Shown here: positions 3,766-38,677 of the stretch, piece by piece
Position numbering within the stretch: position 1 is the first letter of the stretch
Layout: every line of letters begins with the position of its first letter
From: a virus
Lineage: Duplodnaviria > Heunggongvirae > Uroviricota > Caudoviricetes
Direction: 5' to 3' (one strand)
IMG/VR virus record: IMGVR_UViG_3300045988_139913
Length of the DNA stretch: 38,677 nt
Program-made: the position numbers and the translations under genes
The notes under the pieces: generated by a model
The model's database searches: none
The model's input: only the letters and a program-made list of their open reading frames with translations
Told to the model about the DNA's origin: nothing

Positions 3766-3799
3766 TTATCTAAAACCTCGGTTTACAGGAAACGGTAAA
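3766..3799. repeat. gix recombination site (gin-proximal inverted repeat of G segment)
   Basis: TTATCTAAAACCTCGGTTTACAGGAAACGGTAAA; inverted copy at ~6535..6569. Confidence 0.85.
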
Positions 3800-4736
3800 T
3801 CAGGCTTCTGGCTCATTACAGAAAAACCAGAACGGCGCAGATATTCCGGGAAAAGATACCTTCACCAAAAATATTGGTGCCTGCCGCGCATATAGCTCAT
3901 GGCTGAATATTGGTGGCGATAGTCAGGTCTGGACAACCGCGCAATTTATTTCGTGGCTGGAGAGTCAGGGAGCATTTAACCATCCTTACTGGATGTGCAA
4001 AGGCTCATGGGCTTATGCAAATAATAAGATCATTACAGATACAGGTTGCGGAAATATTTGTCTTGCAGGTGCTGTGGTGGAAGTTATTGGCACTCGCGGC
4101 GCAATGACCATACGCGTTACTACGCCGAGCACGTCCAGCGGTGGCGGAATTACTAACGCTCAATTCACCTATATTAATCATGGTGATGCTTATGCTCCTG
4201 GCTGGCGACGAGACTACAACACGAAAAACCAGCAGCCTGCATTTGCTTTAGGGCAAACAGGAAGCACTGTCGGAAATGATAAAGCTGTTGGCTGGAACTG
4301 GAACAGCGGGGTTTATTGCGCCAGCATCACCGGCGCATCAACATTAATTCTTCATTTCAATATGAATACGGGTAGTTGTCCAGCAGTACAGTTCCGCGTG
4401 AATTATAAGAACGGCGGTATCTTTTATCGTTCAGCCCGTGATGGTTATGGTTTTGAAGCCGACTGGTCCGAATTTTACACCACCACCAGAAAACCTTCAG
4501 CAGGAGATGTTGGTGCATATACTAAAGCGGAATGTAATTCACGATTTATTACAGGTGTCCGTTTAGGAGGACTGTCATCTGTTCAAACATGGAATGGGCC
4601 TGGTTGGTCTGATAAGTCAGGTTATGTCGTTACAGGTTCAGTTAACGGAAACCGTGACGAATTAATTGATACAACTCAGGCAAGGCCAATTCAGTATTGC
4701 ATTAATGGGACGTGGTATAACGCGGGGAGTATTTAA
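3774..4736 (+). CDS. Sv' alternative tail-fibre variable segment (no own start; expressed only after G inversion as Sc-Sv' fusion)
   Basis: Frame open from the gix core (NLGLQETV, identical to the Sc/Sv junction in S) to stop at 4736; ORF track only reports it from an internal ATG at 3993. Confidence 0.75.
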   Translation, partial: NLGLQETVNQASGSLQKNQNGADIPGKDTFTKNIGACRAYSSWLNIGGDSQVWTTAQFISWLESQGAFNHPYWMCKGSWAYANNKIITDTGCGNICLAGAVVEVIGTRGAMTIRVTTPSTSSGGGITNAQFTYINHGDAYAPGWRRDYNTKNQQPAFALGQTGSTVGNDKAVGWNWNSGVYCASITGASTLILHFNMNTGSCPAVQFRVNYKNGGIFYRSARDGYGFEADWSEFYTTTRKPSAGDVGAYTKAECNSRFITGVRLGGLSSVQTWNGPGWSDKSGYVVTGSVNGNRDELIDTTQARPIQYCINGTWYNAGSI

Positions 4737-4738
4737 CG

Positions 4739-5272
4739 ATGATGCACTTAAAAAACATTACTGCTGGCAATCCTAAAACAAAAGAGCAATATCAGCTAAC
4801 AAAGCAATTTAACATCAAATGGCTTTATACAGAGGATGGAAAAAACTGGTATGAGGAACAAAAGAATTTCCAGTCTGATACGTTGAAAATGGTCTATGAC
4901 CATAACGGCGTTATTATTTGTATTGAAAAGGATGTTTCAGCAATTAATCCAGAAGGCGCAAGCGTCGTTGAATTACCTGATATTACAGCAAATCGCCGGG
5001 CTGATATTTCGGGTAAATGGATGTTCAAAGATGGTGCGGTGATAAAGCGAACTTATACCGGGGAAGAGCAGAGGCAGCAGGCAGAGAATGAAAAACAAAG
5101 CCTGTTGCAACTTGTCAGGGATAAAACCCAGCTATGGGACTCACAGCTACGGCTGGGCATCATTTCCGATGAGAATAAACAGAAATTAACCGAGTGGATG
5201 CTCTATGCGCAGAAAGTCGAATCCACAGACACCTCCAGCCTGCCGGTAACATTCCCCGAACAACCAGAATGA
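4739..5272 (+). CDS. U' tail-fibre assembly protein (alternate orientation set)
   Basis: 177 aa immediately after Sv'; tail-fibre assembly (Tfa)-like; convergent with U. Confidence 0.75.
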   Translation: MMHLKNITAGNPKTKEQYQLTKQFNIKWLYTEDGKNWYEEQKNFQSDTLKMVYDHNGVIICIEKDVSAINPEGASVVELPDITANRRADISGKWMFKDGAVIKRTYTGEEQRQQAENEKQSLLQLVRDKTQLWDSQLRLGIISDENKQKLTEWMLYAQKVESTDTSSLPVTFPEQPE

Positions 5273-5398
5273 GAAAGGCCCGTTATCGGGCCTTAATTTT
5301 ACTCAGGCTTTTGTGGCCATCCAGGCTTTTCCATATCCACATGACTGCGGAAAGCAAGGAAATACAAAATAACAAAAATGATAATAATTGTGCTGGTA

Positions 5399-5884
5399 TT
5401 ATAGCGTCGTTTTCACATCCTCTGCGCTGCTCTCTTTGCCGCTTTGTTCGTCTGGAACAGCGGGCCACTCAATATCCGTCGCGGTTGATGTATCAATACG
5501 CATAAGCAGCACACGATATTTTTTCCATTCAGCCAGTACAGTGATTTCTGCTTCTGTCGCCATCCCTGCGTCAACAGCATCCTGCCGCCAGGCAATTTCT
5601 GTGTTCGCAATCTCGGCTAAATCCTTTTTCTTCTGCTCTTTTAATGCGATTAACTGCTCTGTTGTTGGTTCTGATACATCAATCCATGTAGGGAAACCAG
5701 ATTCATCACGGCCTCTCTTTTTTCCCTCTGGCGGTCTTCCCGTAAACTCTTCATACATATCGTTTGTGACTGCCACCAAATCGTCAGGCCATGCGCCTGA
5801 TTTTTCATAGTCCGGTTTCATGGATTCAAAGAAAAACGTATTATTCCTGGCACTATAGAATATTTTACTGGACATGATTAACAC
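5399..5884 (-). CDS. U: U tail-fibre assembly protein (currently expressed set)
   Basis: 161 aa directly downstream of S, Tfa-like. Confidence 0.75.
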   Translation of the reverse strand: MLIMSSKIFYSARNNTFFFESMKPDYEKSGAWPDDLVAVTNDMYEEFTGRPPEGKKRGRDESGFPTWIDVSEPTTEQLIALKEQKKKDLAEIANTEIAWRQDAVDAGMATEAEITVLAEWKKYRVLLMRIDTSTATDIEWPAVPDEQSGKESSAEDVKTTL

Positions 5885-7065
5885 CCCACACCAATACAGA
5901 AGAATGGTTTAGAAACAGCAACCCCAGACCTTTCCATTAACGTGACCTGCATATCGCGATCATTTAATCTTTTAACACCCGCAATTGCACTTGCTATCGA
6001 GTCACCAGCAACGTTACAGGCTAACAAACCAAAGCAACGAACAGGCCAACCAACAGGAAACGGGGCAGATGCCCAGCCACTGGCATCAGTATTTCCCCAA
6101 CACCATTGAAAAATGATGCCATTTGGAAAACGTACCCAGCCAGCATCGGCCATCGCCTGGGTAAAATCACTGTTTTTTGTATACCCCTGAATGCTCCATC
6201 CATTCTGGGGAATTAACTGCCTGATATTTCCATCCAAAGTAAATGCAACCTTGCGGCGGTCAGAAATATTGCCTGCCGGAGACAATGCAACATCTATGTA
6301 GTTCGCGCCATTTTCCATTATTCCGCAAATGAGCGATGACATAATCGCTCCGCCAAATGAGAAATCGACTCCATTTGCACTTCCTGCAACCGTGCTCTTG
6401 TTTCTGATGTGAATACCAGAAAAGCCATTATCTTTTTCAATAAGTAATTCATTCCCAATTAACGAGAGAATGCCCTTGATAATCACATCACCGTTAACCA
6501 CCCCGCCATATGTTGATAACGCTTCCGAAGCTAATTTTACAGTTTCCTGTAAACCGAGGTTTTGGATAAACAGCGGCTTATTGGGAATATCTGCTCCGTT
6601 CCGGTCTTTTGCCAGACGGGCATTGGCATTATCCATCGCAATTTTCACCGCTTTTGCGGTGGCTGCCAGCGTTTCACTGGGGCTGTCAGTGGCACTGGTT
6701 AGCTGAACGAGTCCTTTTTTGTTCAGGCTGGCATCCCAGATATCCAGATTTTCACGTGCTGTACGCTGTGCTGATGCCCCGGCAGTTTTAATTTCGCTGA
6801 GGTTATTTTTTATCAGCAGCGCGTTATTGCTCATAATGGCTTTAATGGACAGTGCAAGCTGGTTTAATTTTGTTTTATCCGGTTGAATACCGGCTTCTTC
6901 CAGCGTGTTTAATAACTCCGCCTGCACAATATTAAACCAGTCCATGCCGGGCCATGTGATAACATTATTCCCGTCACCTTCTGAAAACCAGCGAACGATA
7001 GCACTACGCTGGGCGGATACGGGCGGCATGACGGTTACGCCGCTGTCGTTATCAATATAAAACAT
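5878..7065 (-). CDS. S: S tail fibre (Sc constant part ~6538..7065 fused to Sv variable part inside G)
   Basis: 395 aa; spans the gix site at ~6538-6561 (NLGLQETV); start overlaps stop of upstream gene (TAATG). Confidence 0.85.
   Translation of the reverse strand: MFYIDNDSGVTVMPPVSAQRSAIVRWFSEGDGNNVITWPGMDWFNIVQAELLNTLEEAGIQPDKTKLNQLALSIKAIMSNNALLIKNNLSEIKTAGASAQRTARENLDIWDASLNKKGLVQLTSATDSPSETLAATAKAVKIAMDNANARLAKDRNGADIPNKPLFIQNLGLQETVKLASEALSTYGGVVNGDVIIKGILSLIGNELLIEKDNGFSGIHIRNKSTVAGSANGVDFSFGGAIMSSLICGIMENGANYIDVALSPAGNISDRRKVAFTLDGNIRQLIPQNGWSIQGYTKNSDFTQAMADAGWVRFPNGIIFQWCWGNTDASGWASAPFPVGWPVRCFGLLACNVAGDSIASAIAGVKRLNDRDMQVTLMERSGVAVSKPFFCIGVGC
6535..6569. repeat. gix recombination site inside S (Sc/Sv junction)
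   Basis: TTTCCTGTAAACCGAGGTTTTGGATAA, inverted repeat of the site at 3766..3799. Confidence 0.85.
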
Positions 7066-7607: not shown

Positions 7608-8680
7608 TCAATTGTCCCCGGTGTTAACAGTTCCGTATTCTCCGAACGCTGGATCTCTGTCGGGAAACGCACTTCAAAATCATCCAGACCGGTAACACCT
7701 GCCACCGCACGGATAATACGGGAGGGGGCAAGTGCGCCGCCCGGCGTCACCTCATTAAAAAACATGGTATTAATGGCGTGAGTAATAGCCTGTTTCAGTT
7801 CGGCTGTCTTCGGTGATATATAAATCCGTGGATTTACCGGCTTTGCCTTTGGCGCAAATACCGTGACATTTACACCATCAGGCTGCCCGACAATCAGGCC
7901 GGTTATCGGGTCAGTATGACCGGCGATATAATCCGCCACACGTTCCACATCTGCCGGTTGTGGAAAAATATTGATCCGGTTATCCATAACAAACGTCACC
8001 CCGACTGTGCCACCGCCTTTCCATGTCGGAAAACACCAGGCACGGGTAACGCCGCTGACTTCACGTGCCCAGCGGACGTAATCAAACTGATTACCGCCGA
8101 ACGGAGGATACTGGACACGATATTCCAGCCGTGACAGCAGCTCCGCTGCACTCTCAATATCTGCCCCACCGGAAAACCCTTTTACAGTGATGGCATCGGA
8201 AACAACACAGGCAACCGGGGTGATCAACGTTAAAAGGGTATTCTCACCGGTATTTCCTGCTTCACCGGCAGCCAGTGCGGTAACGGTAATTTCCGTCGTT
8301 CCTGCACGGTCAATCACAATGGCATCAGCCAGGCTGTAAACCACACCATCAGCACGCTGCCAGCGTGTACCGGCAGGAATGGTGGTCGCTGCCGATGTGG
8401 TGACAGTCAGCGGGCCGCTGGCGGCTGTCGCCTGTTTGCGGCGCACGCCCCAGAACCGGCAGTGCTCCAGCAACTCATCTTCATCTGCTGTCGACGGGAT
8501 AATCTGCCGTCCAACCCATGAAATATGCTCGTGACAACCGGCAGCAAGGCCTGCCTGAGCATAAGCAATGGCACTCAGCGTTTTTTCACGGGCCTGAGGC
8601 CAGCTACCCGGCAGGCGCTGTTCAATATTCTGTTCTGTACGGGCAATCAGCGATGATAATGTCGGTGGTGAATAAGCCAT
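7598..8680 (-). CDS. R: Baseplate J-like protein
   Basis: 360 aa; position and size as Mu gp47. Confidence 0.75.
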   Translation of the reverse strand: MAYSPPTLSSLIARTEQNIEQRLPGSWPQAREKTLSAIAYAQAGLAAGCHEHISWVGRQIIPSTADEDELLEHCRFWGVRRKQATAASGPLTVTTSAATTIPAGTRWQRADGVVYSLADAIVIDRAGTTEITVTALAAGEAGNTGENTLLTLITPVACVVSDAITVKGFSGGADIESAAELLSRLEYRVQYPPFGGNQFDYVRWAREVSGVTRAWCFPTWKGGGTVGVTFVMDNRINIFPQPADVERVADYIAGHTDPITGLIVGQPDGVNVTVFAPKAKPVNPRIYISPKTAELKQAITHAINTMFFNEVTPGGALAPSRIIRAVAGVTGLDDFEVRFPTEIQRSENTELLTPGTIEWL

Positions 8681-31141: not shown

Positions 31142-31668
31142 TGTTTTCCATTGTTTACCTCCGCCTGTTTTTGCGCCCGGATAAATTCGTCAGAAAGGAT
31201 TTCAGTCATGCGGCCTTGTGCGGGTGTCATCCCCGTCATGACGTAAATCACATCACCAACACGGAACCACTGGAGCGGCCCGAATATTGTTGCGCTGAAA
31301 TCCAGTCCCAGTGCGGGTAAAAGAGCGTCTGTGCGGGCGTAAGTGACCGGAATATTCTCCTGCCATATTTTCGCCAGCTCTCTTGCCTGCTCCCTGAGAT
31401 GAGCAGGTATCCGTGAAGTTCTGGGCCTGCAACTGTTACCTGATGCGGGCCGTTGTACGGTCCACAGCTCCCGCGAGAAGGGGCGCTCATTCCCCGGAAA
31501 ATTCACGCCATGAAAATGACGCCCACCAATACCTGTGCTGAATACTGACCGGCAACCACAGCCCAGAACCTTATCAAGATGGCGGGCTTCTTCGCGTAGT
31601 TTCAGGCAGTCCGCCATAAACTGGTCCCATGCCAGCAGTGCTGCGGAATTTGACGTTTTAAAAAACAT
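31138..31668 (-). CDS. Early-region protein (176 aa)
   Basis: ORF-track ORF 31138..31707 trimmed to Met overlapping upstream stop. Confidence 0.55.
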   Translation of the reverse strand: MFFKTSNSAALLAWDQFMADCLKLREEARHLDKVLGCGCRSVFSTGIGGRHFHGVNFPGNERPFSRELWTVQRPASGNSCRPRTSRIPAHLREQARELAKIWQENIPVTYARTDALLPALGLDFSATIFGPLQWFRVGDVIYVMTGMTPAQGRMTEILSDEFIRAQKQAEVNNGKQ

Positions 31669-32198
31669 CACGCCACCTCCTGCACCGCTGCGGGAACCGG
31701 AGAACAATCAAGAATGAGATAACGCAGTACATGGTCGGTGATATTCCAGGCGCTTGAACTGCAAATAAAACGCCCCAGCCGGATATCGATATAAGCCATC
31801 ACAAAACGGGGCATACCCTGTTCGCACATGCTGTTGTCCACTTCTGCAACGATGTGAACGGATTCACAGGTCAGTACGCCCGTCGCAAACTCTTTTGCCA
31901 GCGCGGGGATGGTATTACCTTCCACCCAGGGTAATGAGCGACGCCAGTTGCACCACACCGCATCATCAACAGCAGGCTGCTCAGTTACGTTTCGTCTTAC
32001 AGGCGGCGTCGGACGCGGGCGCGGAACGTCATAAAATCCGTTGCATTCGGTGAGCACTCCGGCATCAACTGCATCACGCAGGAAATACACCATTGACGAG
32101 GGCAGCATATTCATTTTTTCAGCCAGAACTCCGCAGGTCAGGCGTCCGTAAGCCCGTAATAATGTGCTGACACCATTCAGAATTTTTGCATCAACCAT
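31668..32198 (-). CDS. Early-region protein with N-terminal winged-helix-like segment (176 aa)
   Basis: Downstream of gam; N-terminal ~60 aa resemble a wHTH. Confidence 0.5.
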   Translation of the reverse strand: MVDAKILNGVSTLLRAYGRLTCGVLAEKMNMLPSSMVYFLRDAVDAGVLTECNGFYDVPRPRPTPPVRRNVTEQPAVDDAVWCNWRRSLPWVEGNTIPALAKEFATGVLTCESVHIVAEVDNSMCEQGMPRFVMAYIDIRLGRFICSSSAWNITDHVLRYLILDCSPVPAAVQEVA

Positions 32199-32296
32199 GT
32201 TTTATTCCTCAGTAATCTGTTTCAGGCGCGAGCAATCCCCTGACGCATCGCGCCATAATTAAAAGAATGTGAATTAATTAAATATTAATGGTGGTA

Positions 32297-32821
32297 TTAA
32301 ATACCGGCTTCCTGTTCAAACGGAATAATGGAAAAATCTTCAATTCCCGATTTAACTGTAATTCCGGCAACACTTGCGACCGCTTTCGGTTCCAGTAAAA
32401 TCGCTTCCTTGTTGATTTCCTGCTTCGTGCGAATAAAGCGTTGCAGGCCAAGACGCTCCAGCGTTTCCATCACTGCATCCATACCACGAATACTTACTGA
32501 GGGTGGACGGACCCGCCACGATACATCACCGGTGACAAGATTCGCCGTCTTCACTTTGCCGCCGTTTGTCAGTTCGTCGCGGTTCGCTTCACACCATCCC
32601 TGAACACCTTTTGAAAGGGTTTCAATATCGGTTTTAATCGGTGCAATCCGGGCTGCAAATTTCTCCGTAATTTCCGCGATGGCATCATTCATTTCCGTTT
32701 CCAGACGTGATGCTTCGCGCTGTAAATCCCCGATGCGTTTAATATCGGTAATCACCGCATCGCGGTTTTGTGGCACATAAGCCGCTGCGGCACTTTTGAT
32801 ACGTTTTGCTGGTTTAGCCAT
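32297..32821 (-). CDS. gam: Gam host-nuclease inhibitor (Ku-like DNA end-binding)
   Basis: 174 aa MAKPAKRIKSAAAAYVPQNRDAVITDIKRIGDLQRE...; matches Mu Gam as I recall it. Confidence 0.9.
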   Translation of the reverse strand: MAKPAKRIKSAAAAYVPQNRDAVITDIKRIGDLQREASRLETEMNDAIAEITEKFAARIAPIKTDIETLSKGVQGWCEANRDELTNGGKVKTANLVTGDVSWRVRPPSVSIRGMDAVMETLERLGLQRFIRTKQEINKEAILLEPKAVASVAGITVKSGIEDFSIIPFEQEAGI

Positions 32822-33580: not shown

Positions 33581-33850
33581 TTAATGTTTAACCGCATTCA
33601 CCGGATGTGGTACTAAATCACATTCAGCTTCCATACCCACTTTCTTCATAGTGGTCAGCATCTCATCTTTGGCCTTTTTAATAATTTCAGGAGCCATAGT
33701 CAGGACGATATTTGCCAGTAAATCATGAGGCCCGGTATTTTCCGTTGGCGAGATATCTGCAAGACATGCTTTTGCATCCAGAACTTCTCTGCGCCCATTG
33801 CAACCGTCACTACTTTCCAGCCATGTAAACTCAAAGATAACCTTTGCCAT
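33581..33850 (-). CDS. Early-region protein (89 aa)
   Basis: Co-directional ORF in early operon. Confidence 0.5.
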   Translation of the reverse strand: MAKVIFEFTWLESSDGCNGRREVLDAKACLADISPTENTGPHDLLANIVLTMAPEIIKKAKDEMLTTMKKVGMEAECDLVPHPVNAVKH

Positions 33851-33861
33851 TTTGTTTCTCC

Positions 33862-34092
33862 TTATTGATTCTGAATAACTGCGCTGGCTTTTACCTTCGC
33901 GCCTTTTACCTGCTTAAAGAAAACCGCGCTGCACCACGGACAACATGTCAGGGAATCCCGAATTTCCTTTTCGGGTGAGCATTGCGTCATAATCTGTTCA
34001 CCACATCCGGGGCATTTATATGTCGTCAGCGGCAACCCGTGGCACTGACAGTGTTTAACCCATTCAATATATTTTTCAGCTTTAATACACAT
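33862..34092 (-). CDS. Small zinc-ribbon protein (76 aa)
   Basis: ORF-track ORF 33862..34116 trimmed to ATG with GGAG RBS; CQCHG...CPGCG...CCPWC motifs. Confidence 0.55.
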   Translation of the reverse strand: MCIKAEKYIEWVKHCQCHGLPLTTYKCPGCGEQIMTQCSPEKEIRDSLTCCPWCSAVFFKQVKGAKVKASAVIQNQ

Positions 34093-34094
34093 CG

Positions 34095-34322
34095 TTATCT
34101 CCAGATAATCTGGCAACCATTAAGACGGGCCGTCCATACAGAACGGGCCACCCCGGACTTATGCTCCATAATTCTGACCGCGTTTTTTACCAGTTCCACC
34201 GGTGGGTAAGTGATTTCAAGAATCGGACGCGCCACGCCGAGATATGATTCATTTACATGACTCCCGCGCGCCTGTAACCAGTTCTGCGCATCCGTTGCCA
34301 TTTTTATATTTCGGGCCATCAT
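34095..34322 (-). CDS. Small protein in Mu kil position (75 aa)
   Basis: First ORF after B, AAGGAG RBS; assignment as Kil is positional only. Confidence 0.55.
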
Positions 34323-34337
34323 AATTTCTTCTCCTTC

Positions 34338-35276
34338 TTAATTACGCAGCAGCGTTGAAATATCAACGTCCAGGTCTAATTCACGGAAAGCCTGACGCAG
34401 ATAATCTTCGTTAACACGCTCACCTTTACCGTGAGCCGTCATGGCGGCAAGGCGAAGTGAATGATTCAGAATGCGAAGCGCACCTGGTTTCTGCGCAATC
34501 TGCTGTAATAACTCCAGTTCTTTTTCGCCGTTAATCTGCCAGGCATCCGCAATAGCTTTTACATCGGCTTTTTTGGTTTTATTAATTGCAGTGCGCTTTG
34601 CAATACGGGAAAACAGACGGGCAAATTCAACCGTTCTGTTACCCCCCGTCATATTTGAATAAACCCGGTGATTTCCCATCAGCACAAGGCCAATACGGGT
34701 TGATTCCTGTAACAGGCGGAGTTCTTCCAGAACTTCGGCACCAAGATGATCAGCTTCGTCGATGATAACCAGCCCCTGTGTACCTTCAAGGCGACGTCGC
34801 AGGGCGCGGGAGAGCGGCCCTTTACGGCGTGGTGCGTCATTCATTCCCAGCTCAAACGCCAGTTCAGTAAGACATTCCAGAACGCTGGCACAGGATGGCG
34901 TAATGGTGATCATCCAGACATTGTTATTGGTGCGGCGATATTCACGGGCCGCTTCGGTTTTGCCCACACCAGGATTGCCACATACAACAGCAATACTTTC
35001 AGTCAGGCTGGCAAAACGCATACTTGTCCAGATTTGTTTTACCGTCTGCGTTTCCACAAAGCGGGGCGGTTCAGGTAGTTCTGCAACTGCATGATATTTT
35101 TCCAGCCAGCGTTGCAGCATTTGTGAAACACGCTCGTTATCCCCGTTGTACTTATCATTGATAAAACTACTGATAGTTCCGGTAGAAAGTCCGCTCTCAA
35201 GAGCAATTTGTTTAAAGGTGGTTTCTTCATTTTCTACAAGCGTGCGCAGTCCTGCGCGAATATCGGAAATATTCAT
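34338..35276 (-). CDS. B: Transposition ATPase/target DNA activator MuB
   Basis: 312 aa; Walker A GNPGVGKT; N-terminus MNISDIRAGLRTLVENEE as Mu B. Confidence 0.95.
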   Translation of the reverse strand: MNISDIRAGLRTLVENEETTFKQIALESGLSTGTISSFINDKYNGDNERVSQMLQRWLEKYHAVAELPEPPRFVETQTVKQIWTSMRFASLTESIAVVCGNPGVGKTEAAREYRRTNNNVWMITITPSCASVLECLTELAFELGMNDAPRRKGPLSRALRRRLEGTQGLVIIDEADHLGAEVLEELRLLQESTRIGLVLMGNHRVYSNMTGGNRTVEFARLFSRIAKRTAINKTKKADVKAIADAWQINGEKELELLQQIAQKPGALRILNHSLRLAAMTAHGKGERVNEDYLRQAFRELDLDVDISTLLRN

Positions 35277-35314: not shown

Positions 35315-37303
35315 TTAAATGGCTTTTTTACGTCTGTTCTGTTCCAGAATATCCAGCGAATGATTCAGATATTCATCACGCTCAGTTTCGTATTCATCAT
35401 CACGCTCCTGATTCTTCACTCGTTCCGTATTACCGGAAGGCCGGAAAATGCCGACAATTCGTGATTCTGGTGCTTCAGGTTCGGCTATCTGCGGCAGCAG
35501 CTCTGCCACTTCCAGTGCATCCATTTGTTTCTGTGCCTTAATTGCTGCTTTCGTCGCAGATTTCAGTTGTTTCTGGCGGCGGCGATATTCACGGCCTGCC
35601 GCAGCATCATTAAACGCAACAGGTGCCAGACATTCCGCTTCACAGATAAACCGACCGTCAAGGGTGTAGCAATAAACCGTGCTGTGTAACTGCTGTGGAT
35701 CAAATCTGACCACAACTTTTTTTACTCCGGCATTCATTAACGCCATGTTGTAATAAACGTTTTTCGCACCTTTAAGGGAGCCACCAACTTTAAGCGCGAA
35801 CTCGCCTTTACGTGAAACGTTCACTGCCTCGGCAGGCAGTAACAGCATCCGTTTTTGCTCTTCGGTAGGCTTACGCACAATCGTTCTGGCGTATTCACGC
35901 TCAAAAACGTCATCAAACGAAAGTTTGCCTCCGCACATTTCTGTTTCACGGCCTGTTCTGGCATTGAACATCGCCACACCTTCGGCAAGGGTTTTCAGAA
36001 ACAGCTCTGCATCAACAGCGCGGTCGCCATAGTTATCAGGTTTTGCCTGCGGATTAGGCCCCGTATATGCGCCAGCCAGTGCCGGATGCTTATCAACGTA
36101 TTCCTCAAGCCCACCAACACCGAAAGCACGTTCAACAGGTTTTGCCTGGCCCCAGCCTTTACCGGCAACAACGCTTGTCCAGTGCATTTTCGCCCCCATC
36201 AGTAAAAACAGTCCTTTTGGATCGTCCTCTTTTACCTTAAAGCGGTAGCGATTGGGCGCGCCTCCCGTCAGCCATTTATTCGCAGCACCACGGGTGTTAT
36301 CAATGGTGATGTGAAAATCCTCCGGGATACCGTAGCGAGTCACAACATCCATGAACGAGAGGCGAATTGAATCAATGTTCTCGCTCACATCGCAGCGCCA
36401 GCCCAGAATTTTTCGGGTTTTCACATCCTGCCAGAACCATGTTTTCGGACGGATCACATCACCGTTAAACCAGCGTACAAAGACGTTATGCAGATAACCG
36501 TCGCCGTTGATCCACTGCATGGCGTCCAGGTGTTCCACAGTTCGCTGCTGTGCCGGTATCAGATGCATCAGTGCATGTTCACCTTCACGACAGGCAACAA
36601 CCATTGCCTCGTCCAGTTGCTGAATCCGGCGAAAGGCCGTGGCACGGGAGGGAATACTCCAGCCATGCTCGCGGGCTGCCAGTTCCAGACGCTCATAACA
36701 TTTGCGGAAGGCGGGTTTTTCCGGTCGCAGATAATCTGCAATCAGAAACTGCCAGGCATCCTCGTCAAATTCACTTTTGTGAACATTGCGACGGGATGCT
36801 CCACGTCCATCAACAAGTGCAGCCGCCCAGTCAGGCTTCGCAAACTTCTGTACCTGGTAATACTTGTCCCGCAAAGTGGATGCGCTGACCTGGTAATGCC
36901 CTGCAACGGTCGCAAAAGCCGTTTTCGTTGAAATCCCCTGGTTCAGCATTTCGTCTGCAGCCTGAACCGCAGGCAACCATTTTTCAGCAAGTCTGCGCTG
37001 GGAATCGCTGGCGTTATCCCATTTGCTCCACAGTGCCTCACGATCATAATCATGGGCTTCCAGCGTGGGGCGGGCGATTTCAAAATACCCCTGACTTGTT
37101 TCAATTCTCCCTTGTTGCAACAGAATTTCAGCACGTAATGCGACAGGGAATGATTTGATATTGAATTCAAATGATACACCTTTAGTCCCTGCAACCTGCC
37201 TGAACTCCCAGCCTTCTCTTTGTGCCTTACGTGTAATGTTAGTGGCTTGCTTTGGTAAACCTGCCAAACCGAGCAACTCTTTTGCTGTATACCATTCTTT
37301 CAT
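35315..37303 (-). CDS. A: DDE transposase MuA (D108-type N-terminal domain)
   Basis: 662 aa; C-terminal ~600 aa as Mu A; N-terminal ~60 aa diverged and homologous to the N-terminus of the adjacent repressor. Confidence 0.95.
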
Positions 37304-37310
37304 AGCGCAC

Positions 37311-37532
37311 CTAGTATCGAGACGGCCAAATATCTTGCGGTGTCATTCCCAGTGCATCTGCAATGATTTTCTCCGCTTTCGGATATCTCTTATCCAAAGC
37401 ATTTTTTAATGTTGAAGACGAAAGATGATTAGATCTTCCCAATTCAGCTAGTGACATATTGCGTTTTCGTAGCTCTGCAACGATGTCAGCTCTGTGCCAA
37501 TCTTGGCGGTTAGTTCTTTTATTCATATGCAT
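37311..37532 (-). CDS. ner: Ner DNA-binding regulator (D108-type)
   Basis: 73 aa [73 protein letters not shown]; first gene of early operon. Confidence 0.9.
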
Positions 37533-37717
37533 TTCATGTAATCCTTTCAGATTCCCCCGTGAGCTACGCTATAAAGTAGCTCACGGCATATCGTGCAATG
37601 TAGTGTGGAATCATTTTTAAATCAATAGTGATTTGAAAGGATTTATCATGATTTCATATAACAGCATGATTTTTATATGAATTTATTTTGTCTCTATTGA
37701 AATCACTAGGATTTTAA
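37533..37717. promoter_or_regulatory. Immunity/operator region between ner and c (divergent Pe/Pc promoters, repressor operators, transposition enhancer)
   Basis: AT-rich 185-bp divergent intergenic region with repeated TAGTGATTT-type motifs. Confidence 0.7.
37557..37586. promoter_or_regulatory. Ner operator: two perfect 11-bp inverted repeats separated by 8 bp
   Basis: CCGTGAGCTAC-GCTATAAA-GTAGCTCACGG; matches the D108 ner operator architecture as I recall it. Confidence 0.7.
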
Positions 37718-38242
37718 ATGATGTCTTTTGAAATCAAAGAATGGTTTAATGCGAAAGAGCTGGAAGGGATGCCTGGTGTACCAAAGTTGGCGACTAACAT
37801 TACCAGGAAAGCTGTGGCGGAAGATTGGGTAAAACGTCAGCGTCACGGTGGGAAAGGTGTCGCTTATGAGTATCACATCAACAGTCTGCCAGAAGAAACA
37901 CGCAGGGCCATTAAAGGAGCCTCACTTTCTGATAAACCAGTGCATACATCAATCGTCCATACAGTTGATGAGAGGCTAATTTATGCAATGAGTTTCTTAA
38001 CACCAGATGAGCAGGCCGCAGCAGTGGAGATCATTCGTGTAGCAGGGATTAAAGGACTTATGCCTACAATTGTCAGTAAAGATAAGGCATTAGAGGCATT
38101 AGGGATTACTGTGGAGCAACAGAAAACCCTGCAAACTCTTCAGGCATTACCACCGGAAAAAGTGAGAGAGATTTTGTCTCAGTATGAAGGCAAAGAACAT
38201 AATTTCCCTGTAAGAGAAAACGATGTAAAGAAAGCTGTATAA
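37718..38242 (+). CDS. c: Immunity repressor c (D108-type)
   Basis: 174 aa, divergent from ner, pointing toward attL; N-terminal domain homologous to the MuA N-terminus ([25 protein letters not shown]). Confidence 0.85.
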   Translation: MMSFEIKEWFNAKELEGMPGVPKLATNITRKAVAEDWVKRQRHGGKGVAYEYHINSLPEETRRAIKGASLSDKPVHTSIVHTVDERLIYAMSFLTPDEQAAAVEIIRVAGIKGLMPTIVSKDKALEALGITVEQQKTLQTLQALPPEKVREILSQYEGKEHNFPVRENDVKKAV

Positions 38243-38399
38243 CAACCAGGTAATAGCTAAGACATAAACTTCACTCCAGGTAATTACATATGTAAGATAC
38301 TCAAACAGTGATGATTGTTTTTGACACACATCACTTGCTGAAAGCCTGGTTGTTACCGTTTTTGAAGCATTTTTGAAGCTGTACTTGAAATGATGCGTG

Positions 38400-38581
38400 A
38401 AGTAATTGCTTTTCGTGTCTTTAATGAATCAAAAGCTGTTTCCAACAATCTTTCGCGTTTCAAGATGTAACGGCTAAAATCTGTCCTACAGGCTTGCAAG
38501 CCCCACTAAATCTAATCCCGCCAAATACCGAATAATCCAATGTCCTCCCGGTTTTTTTCGTACTTCAAGTGAATCAATACA
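38400..38581. other. Prophage left end (attL) with transposase-binding sites L1-L3
   Basis: ...CCGAATAATCCAATGTCCTCCCGGTTTTTTTCGTACTTCAAGTGAATCAATACA is the reverse complement of the Mu left terminus; additional TTTCG(T/C)G repeats at ~38421 and ~38450. Confidence 0.8.
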
Positions 38582-38586
38582 CCCGC
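38582..38586. repeat. Target-site duplication CCCGC (left-end side of prophage)
   Basis: Identical to 1600..1604. Confidence 0.8.
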
Positions 38587-38677
38587 GCATTCGAGGATAT
38601 GAATCCGGTTGAAGGGCTGGACGAGATGCTGGTAAGCGTGAATGCTGCTAACCCGGCAGGAGATTTTAAGCCCCCAA
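38582..38677 (+). pseudogene. Portal gene of flanking phage, continuation 3' of the insertion (runs off window)
   Basis: After removing one TSD copy the frame continues ...NEAR-AFEDMNPVEGLDEMLVSVNAANPAGDFKPP. Confidence 0.6.

Follow-up and report, generated by a model that had tools for sequence, protein, structure and literature searches.

The DNA between ner and c, taken with both genes and the start of the transposase gene A, is in our estimate (about 95% probability) the early control, or immunity, module of a transposable prophage of D108 type, which belongs to the D108 lineage as a natural isolate, and works as it does in D108 and Mu. None of the observations contradicts this reading. 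The window, by which we mean the whole stretch of 38,677 nucleotides that was analysed, contains the complete Mu-like prophage (positions 1605-38581, minus strand; 36,977 bp), which is collinear with D108 and with Mu_3F6. The module lies about 0.3-1.3 kb from the left end of the element, and the left end of D108 aligns to it from base 1. The original prediction was attached to 37533-38242, a range that comprises the c-ner intergenic region and c; ner (37311-37532) and the A N-terminus (approximately 37100-37303) are just outside it.

A module of this kind is already known. Its palindrome and the domain common to repressor and transposase were described in the 1980s, were characterised experimentally in the 1980s-1990s, and are present in reference records. 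A repressor and a transposase that share a DNA-binding domain are a textbook case, established in 1985-1989, in which one operator serves both transcriptional and transpositional control.

Type assignment of ner, c and A

All three genes of the module are intact open reading frames. On the minus strand, ner (37311-37532) encodes a 73-residue Cro-like early repressor with an HTH_35 domain (PF13693, E = 1.2e-28). On the plus strand, c (37718-38242) encodes the 174-residue lysogenic (immunity) repressor, with PF02316 at E = 3e-52; its N-terminal winged-helix DNA-binding domain covers approximately residues 6-70. The transposase gene A (35315-37303, minus strand) specifies 662 residues with the domains PF02316, PF09039, PF02914 and PF09299. 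The first ~65 residues of the transposase are the enhancer-binding domain, homologous to the N-terminus of c.

Pairwise alignment places these proteins with D108. Ner (73/73) and A (662/662) are identical to their D108 counterparts, and c is identical at 173 of 174 positions, having Y50 where D108 has N50. Compared with Mu, Ner is 53% identical by BLASTP and 50.7% in a global alignment, c is 29% and 31.6% identical by the same two methods, and A is 94% identical, with divergence only within the first ~70 residues. The features of a Mu-type module (a c of 196 residues, a Ner of 75 residues and the Mu Ner-binding region) do not occur here. The part of the window that takes in c, the control region, ner and the A N-terminus (37116-38221, phage coordinates 361-1466) gave no blastn match to Mu. 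The claim made at the outset, that Ner and c differ in sequence from those of Mu, agrees with these values, and the alignment of c, ner and the A N-terminus against both phages, proposed at the same time as a check, returned D108-type and not Mu-type throughout.

The nucleotide comparison gives the same assignment. When 37250-38600 was searched by BLAST against a phage collection, the 1332 bases reaching to the left end were 100% identical to Mu_3F6 (LR595867), 99.8% identical to D108 (GQ357916 / NC_013594) and 81.9% identical to Shigella phage SfMu. The match to Mu was confined to the final ~360 bases of this stretch, next to the left end, with 79% identity. Over the left 3832 bp, the element differs from D108 GQ357916 by three substitutions (window positions 35579, 37865 and 38301) and no indels.

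The repressor and the transposase of this phage share a DNA-binding domain, as had been noticed from the visible likeness of their N-termini. Residues 6-65 of c align without gaps to residues 1-60 of A with 33/60 identities (E = 7e-18), and PF02316, the Mu DNA-binding domain, is found in A (E = 1.3e-41) as it is in c. The c N-terminus also matches the solved structures of MuA I-alpha (1TNS) and the Mu repressor DNA-binding domain (1G4D). When the N-terminal domains (~65 residues) are compared, identity is 51% between c and A of this phage and 39% between Mu c and Mu A, compared with 25% between this c and Mu c and 42% between this A and Mu A. Within one phage, then, the c and A domains are more alike than are the repressors of the two phages. 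The contrast between 51% for c and A and 25% for the two repressors fits a history in which both domains may have co-evolved with the sites they share. [quoted passage not shown]

The one residue at which c departs from the D108 reference lies inside the DNA-binding domain, at codon 50 (window position 37865). Tyrosine is found at this site in the prophage studied here, in SfMu and in 8/8 translated IMG/VR relatives; among the relatives examined, asparagine occurs only in the D108 reference record. A speculative and on balance unlikely explanation is that the D108 reference carries a laboratory allele of the repressor, possibly a temperature-sensitive one, and that this prophage has the wild-type D108 repressor. 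The presence of Tyr50 in all natural relatives examined is the only mildly new item to come out of the comparison.

The ner-proximal dyad and the c-ner control region

The putative Ner operator is a perfect dyad at 37557-37586. A repeat finder returned two inverted 11-bp arms, CCGTGAGCTAC (37557-37567) and GTAGCTCACGG (37576-37586), which are 100% complementary and lie 8 nt apart; the spacer between them, GCTATAAA, is A or T at six of its eight positions. The dyad is 24 bp upstream of the ner start codon and, on the other side, 131 bp upstream of c. Allowing up to three mismatches, the pattern matches once across the 38.7-kb window, and 100 dinucleotide-preserving shuffles contain no match at all. 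The same dyad is present with 0 mismatches at 996-1025 of D108. Phage Mu contains no match to it, even with three mismatches, and has unrelated sequence at the equivalent position. The original prediction had placed upstream of ner a perfect inverted repeat whose 11-bp arms enclose an AT-rich spacer of 8 bp, and had assigned this architecture to D108, not Mu. Both parts hold, and neither of the outcomes named as speaking against them, a D108 lacking the dyad or a control region of Mu type, was found.

The D108 ner operator is said, in work by Tolias and DuBow and by Kukolj et al. (EMBO J 1989), to be a pair of perfect inverted repeats of 11 bp on either side of an A+T-rich spacer of 8 bp. The title of Benevides et al. 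1994 names as its subject the D108 Ner repressor and an operator of 61 bp. These descriptions suggest that the dyad corresponds to the Ner footprint; binding of Ner to it, with repression of the promoters Pe (early) and Pc, would follow by analogy with the D108 literature.

The conservation of the dyad can be judged from an alignment of seven intergenic regions: the window, D108, SfMu and four E. coli prophages, the six relatives having been chosen without regard to the dyad. Both arms are invariant in 7/7 sequences, and the spacer varies at three of its eight positions; members of the SfMu subtype have TCTGCAAA where the window has GCTATAAA. This subtype also departs strongly from the others in the middle of the intergenic region. 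An exact-pattern scan of IMG/VR found the dyad in eight more contigs, and in 8/8 of these a D108-type ner (at least 97% identical) lies 24 nt from it. The eight contigs were retrieved by their exact arms, and are informative on the spacer and the context only, not on arm conservation. Arms that stay constant, a spacer that changes and a near-invariant Ner always at the same distance are what one would expect of a protein-binding site of the dimer type.

Two wider scans added little to this picture. When one genome of each species was scanned, the exact dyad had 0 matches, which probably reflects an E. coli representative without the prophage. A scan for a relaxed 16-base form of the dyad gave at least 80 matches in unrelated phyla, which is about the chance expectation for 596 Gb and makes these matches uninformative.

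The control region between the divergent ner and c genes is 185 bp long. Beyond the dyad, its remaining part (37587-37717) probably holds the early promoter Pe and the operators of the c repressor, which would also be the transposition enhancer; the positions of both are suggested by analogy with Mu. A candidate Pe on the minus strand has a -35 hexamer TTGATT (37625-37620), a 17-nt spacer and a -10 hexamer TACATT (37602-37597). Its hexamers are invariant in the seven aligned sequences while the neighbouring bases vary, and it scores 8/12. A simple sigma-70 consensus promoter scan of 37300-38600 had no promoter above its threshold between the two genes. If the candidate Pe is real, the dyad would occupy approximately +5 to +34 of the early transcript, in its transcribed leader. 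A Pc promoter with its -10 element, TATAAA, in the dyad spacer was considered and set aside, as SfMu-type relatives have TGCAAA there.

Candidate operator motifs are found on the c side of this region. Three of the 12 matches to TGAWWTCA in the window fall within 37649-37736, an 88-bp segment that takes in the c side of the intergenic region together with the opening codons of c itself, and these are possibly recognition sites for c and A. Counts of GAAATCA and TGAWWTCA together show a local cluster in the same segment, with the motif also present elsewhere in the window, and we infer from this clustering a putative c/A operator. No site matching the IHF consensus WATCARNNNNTTR, an approximate pattern, was found in the control region.

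A second, shorter inverted pair surrounds the dyad. The 10-mer TGAAAGGATT occurs at 37540-37549 on the minus strand and at 37634-37643 on the plus strand, the two exact copies being inverted and 94 bp apart, and there are no other exact copies in the window. The first copy overlaps the Shine-Dalgarno sequence of ner. The second copy is followed by a mini-ORF of 10 codons (ATG at 37648), whose conservation does not extend to SfMu. There is a minor possibility that the pair is an undescribed extra site for repressor or transposase, rather than two Shine-Dalgarno-like sequences.

The dyad might instead act mainly as RNA, either as a hairpin in the ner-A-B leader or as an intrinsic terminator, and not as a protein operator. 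We consider this very improbable. The minus-strand transcript of the dyad can form an 11-bp stem with an 8-nt loop, a 78-nt stretch has a minimum free energy of -23.4 kcal/mol (z = -3.4 against shuffles), and a real Pe at 37625-37597 would put the dyad within the leader, but any perfect palindrome folds likewise. No U-tract comes after the stem, which is followed by GGGGAAUCUG on the minus and by CAUAUCG on the plus strand; a terminator scan of 37300-38600 did not call the dyad, and an Rfam search of 37200-38677 returned no family, only sub-threshold chance matches. The seven-sequence alignment holds no compensatory changes, as the arms never vary, and arm conservation of this kind cannot by itself tell a protein site from an RNA hairpin. 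Published D108 work, as the title of Benevides et al. 1994 has it, treats this DNA as the operator of Ner. We favour the reading of the dyad as an operator bound by the Ner protein.

The prophage as a whole

The module is part of a full-length element that inserted by transposition. The prophage lies in reverse orientation, with its right end at 1605 and its left end at 38581 (terminal CA at 38580-38581), and the two copies of a 5-bp target duplication, CCCGC, border it at 1600-1604 and 38582-38586. E. coli NZ_CP062811 has the empty site, matching the right flank at 91/91 positions with one copy of CCCGC removed. The duplication, the ends and the empty site are together the signature of a Mu-type transposition insertion. 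The left end (attL), with the transposase end-binding sites, occupies 38243-38581 and differs by one base from D108 1-339. The transposase-binding sites annotated in the D108 record at 11-27 and 156-172 correspond to 38555-38571 and 38410-38426 of the window.

The flanks of the prophage (1-1604 and 38582-38677) are the terminase-portal region of an HK97-type prophage, and the Mu-like insertion sits in its portal gene. Within the element, the invertible G segment (3766-6569) is in the orientation opposite to that of Mu_3F6. The variable part of the tail fibre, at about 5348-6535, gave no blastn match in D108 or Mu.

The original prediction called the element a Mu/D108 mosaic with D108 immunity, and this claim stands only in part. 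Two early stretches of about 1 kb are indeed nearer to Mu: 33582-34581 is 98.7% identical to Mu and 89.6% to D108, and 31582-32581 is 97.2% identical to Mu and 93.8% to D108. The remainder does not bear out a mosaic, as it is collinear with D108 and carries the D108-specific gene 56. The two stretches indicate local exchange that probably took place within the Mu/D108 group.

A stronger form of the mosaic, a true recombinant in which a Mu backbone acquired the immunity cassette of D108, is in our view improbable. The two Mu-like stretches would suit such a history, as would the identity of 96-99% that the window has to both phages outside the diagnostic regions, but Mu and D108 are themselves ~98% identical wherever they can be aligned, so that likeness to Mu is no evidence of a Mu backbone. 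The whole element gives a single collinear alignment to D108 over phage coordinates 1-32046, at 98.3%, and the alignment to Mu fails over three segments (approximately 360-1466, 4752-5006 and 7651-8252). The D108-specific gene 56 region at the right end is 99.8% identical to D108, with Mu covering 47.5% of it, and in most 1-kb windows D108 is equally near or nearer. Still less credible, and the least probable of the explanations we considered, is that the element is a decayed, non-functional remnant in which the motifs survive as relics. Nothing specific favours it; the prophage does sit inside another prophage. Both ends of the element are present, none of its length is missing and its 5-bp target duplication is intact. 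The reading frames of c, ner and A are intact too, with products identical or nearly identical to functional D108 proteins, and the whole element is 99.9-100% identical to Mu_3F6, which was deposited as a phage genome. On sequence comparison, the element is best described as a D108-lineage phage with ordinary patchy exchange, and not as a Mu backbone carrying a D108 cassette.

The proposed switch and its known relatives

The module is expected to work as a switch between lysogeny and lytic growth. In the prophage state, c, made from the plus strand, would bind operators between c and ner (37587-37717) and shut the early promoter of ner-A-B on the minus strand, keeping the prophage silent. The N-terminal winged-helix domain of c is a paralogue of the first domain of A, and both recognise the same operator DNA in Mu and presumably here. 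That shared DNA would double as the transposition enhancer, where c would compete with A. If c and A do use the same operator/enhancer DNA, the repressor would block transposition directly as well as through transcription. In Mu, the transposition enhancer overlaps the O1-O3 operators bound by the c repressor (review, PMC3145075). Ner, a small Cro-like protein and the first early product, would bind the 11-8-11 dyad that lies a short way in front of the ner gene. By lowering c synthesis and limiting early transcription, it would lead the phage into lytic growth. The binding of c and A to shared sites, the promoter positions and the heteroimmunity discussed below are likely by extension from published D108 and Mu experiments.

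The immunity of the lysogen can be predicted from this assignment. Since c, Ner, the A N-terminus and the dyad are all of D108 type, and c, Ner and the operator have diverged from those of Mu, a lysogen should be immune to D108 and sensitive to Mu (heteroimmunity). The module thus types the prophage as D108-immunity, so that the host strain is predicted to resist D108-like phages, not Mu. Beyond correct annotation, the value of the finding is small.

The D108-type control region is present in 45/5426 complete E. coli genomes (~0.8%), at many different insertion sites, and the Mu-type region in fewer, 27 complete E. coli genomes. Among the Mu-type matches listed, 6 of 8 are laboratory or production strains (BW2952, W, KO11FL, LY180). 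A passage in PMC9023278 suggests that some laboratory stocks carry D108-type prophages.

The closest known system is the D108 early control region (bp 1-1332), which has the same order of attL, c, operators, ner and A. The prophage differs from D108 there by Tyr50 of c in place of Asn50, by one silent change in A and by one base between c and attL; elsewhere in the genome the differences are the two early patches nearer to Mu and a different variable segment of the tail fibre. Mu_3F6 has an identical control region, and its flanking host DNA differs, reflecting another insertion or packaging context. SfMu (KP010268), a phage described in PMC4406740, and E. coli prophages of its subtype, such as that of RM11911, share the architecture and both dyad arms. 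The SfMu Ner is 98.6% and its c 90.8% identical to the proteins found here, with 82% identity of the control region at the nucleotide level.

Mu (AF083977) shares the gene order and the logic of the switch, with PF02316 in c and in the A N-terminus and HTH_35 in Ner. Its c has 196 residues compared with 174 here, it has no 11-8-11 dyad, and its Ner-binding region is another one; the sequences lead us to expect heteroimmunity between Mu and this phage. The CI/Cro switch of lambda is a functional analogue only. Like the module described here, it places divergent genes for a repressor and an anti-repressor on either side of a shared control region, with Ner in the role of Cro. Unlike lambda, the D108-type module uses other protein families, and its c and Ner would bind different sites. 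A repressor that competes with the transposase for the enhancer has no lambda counterpart.
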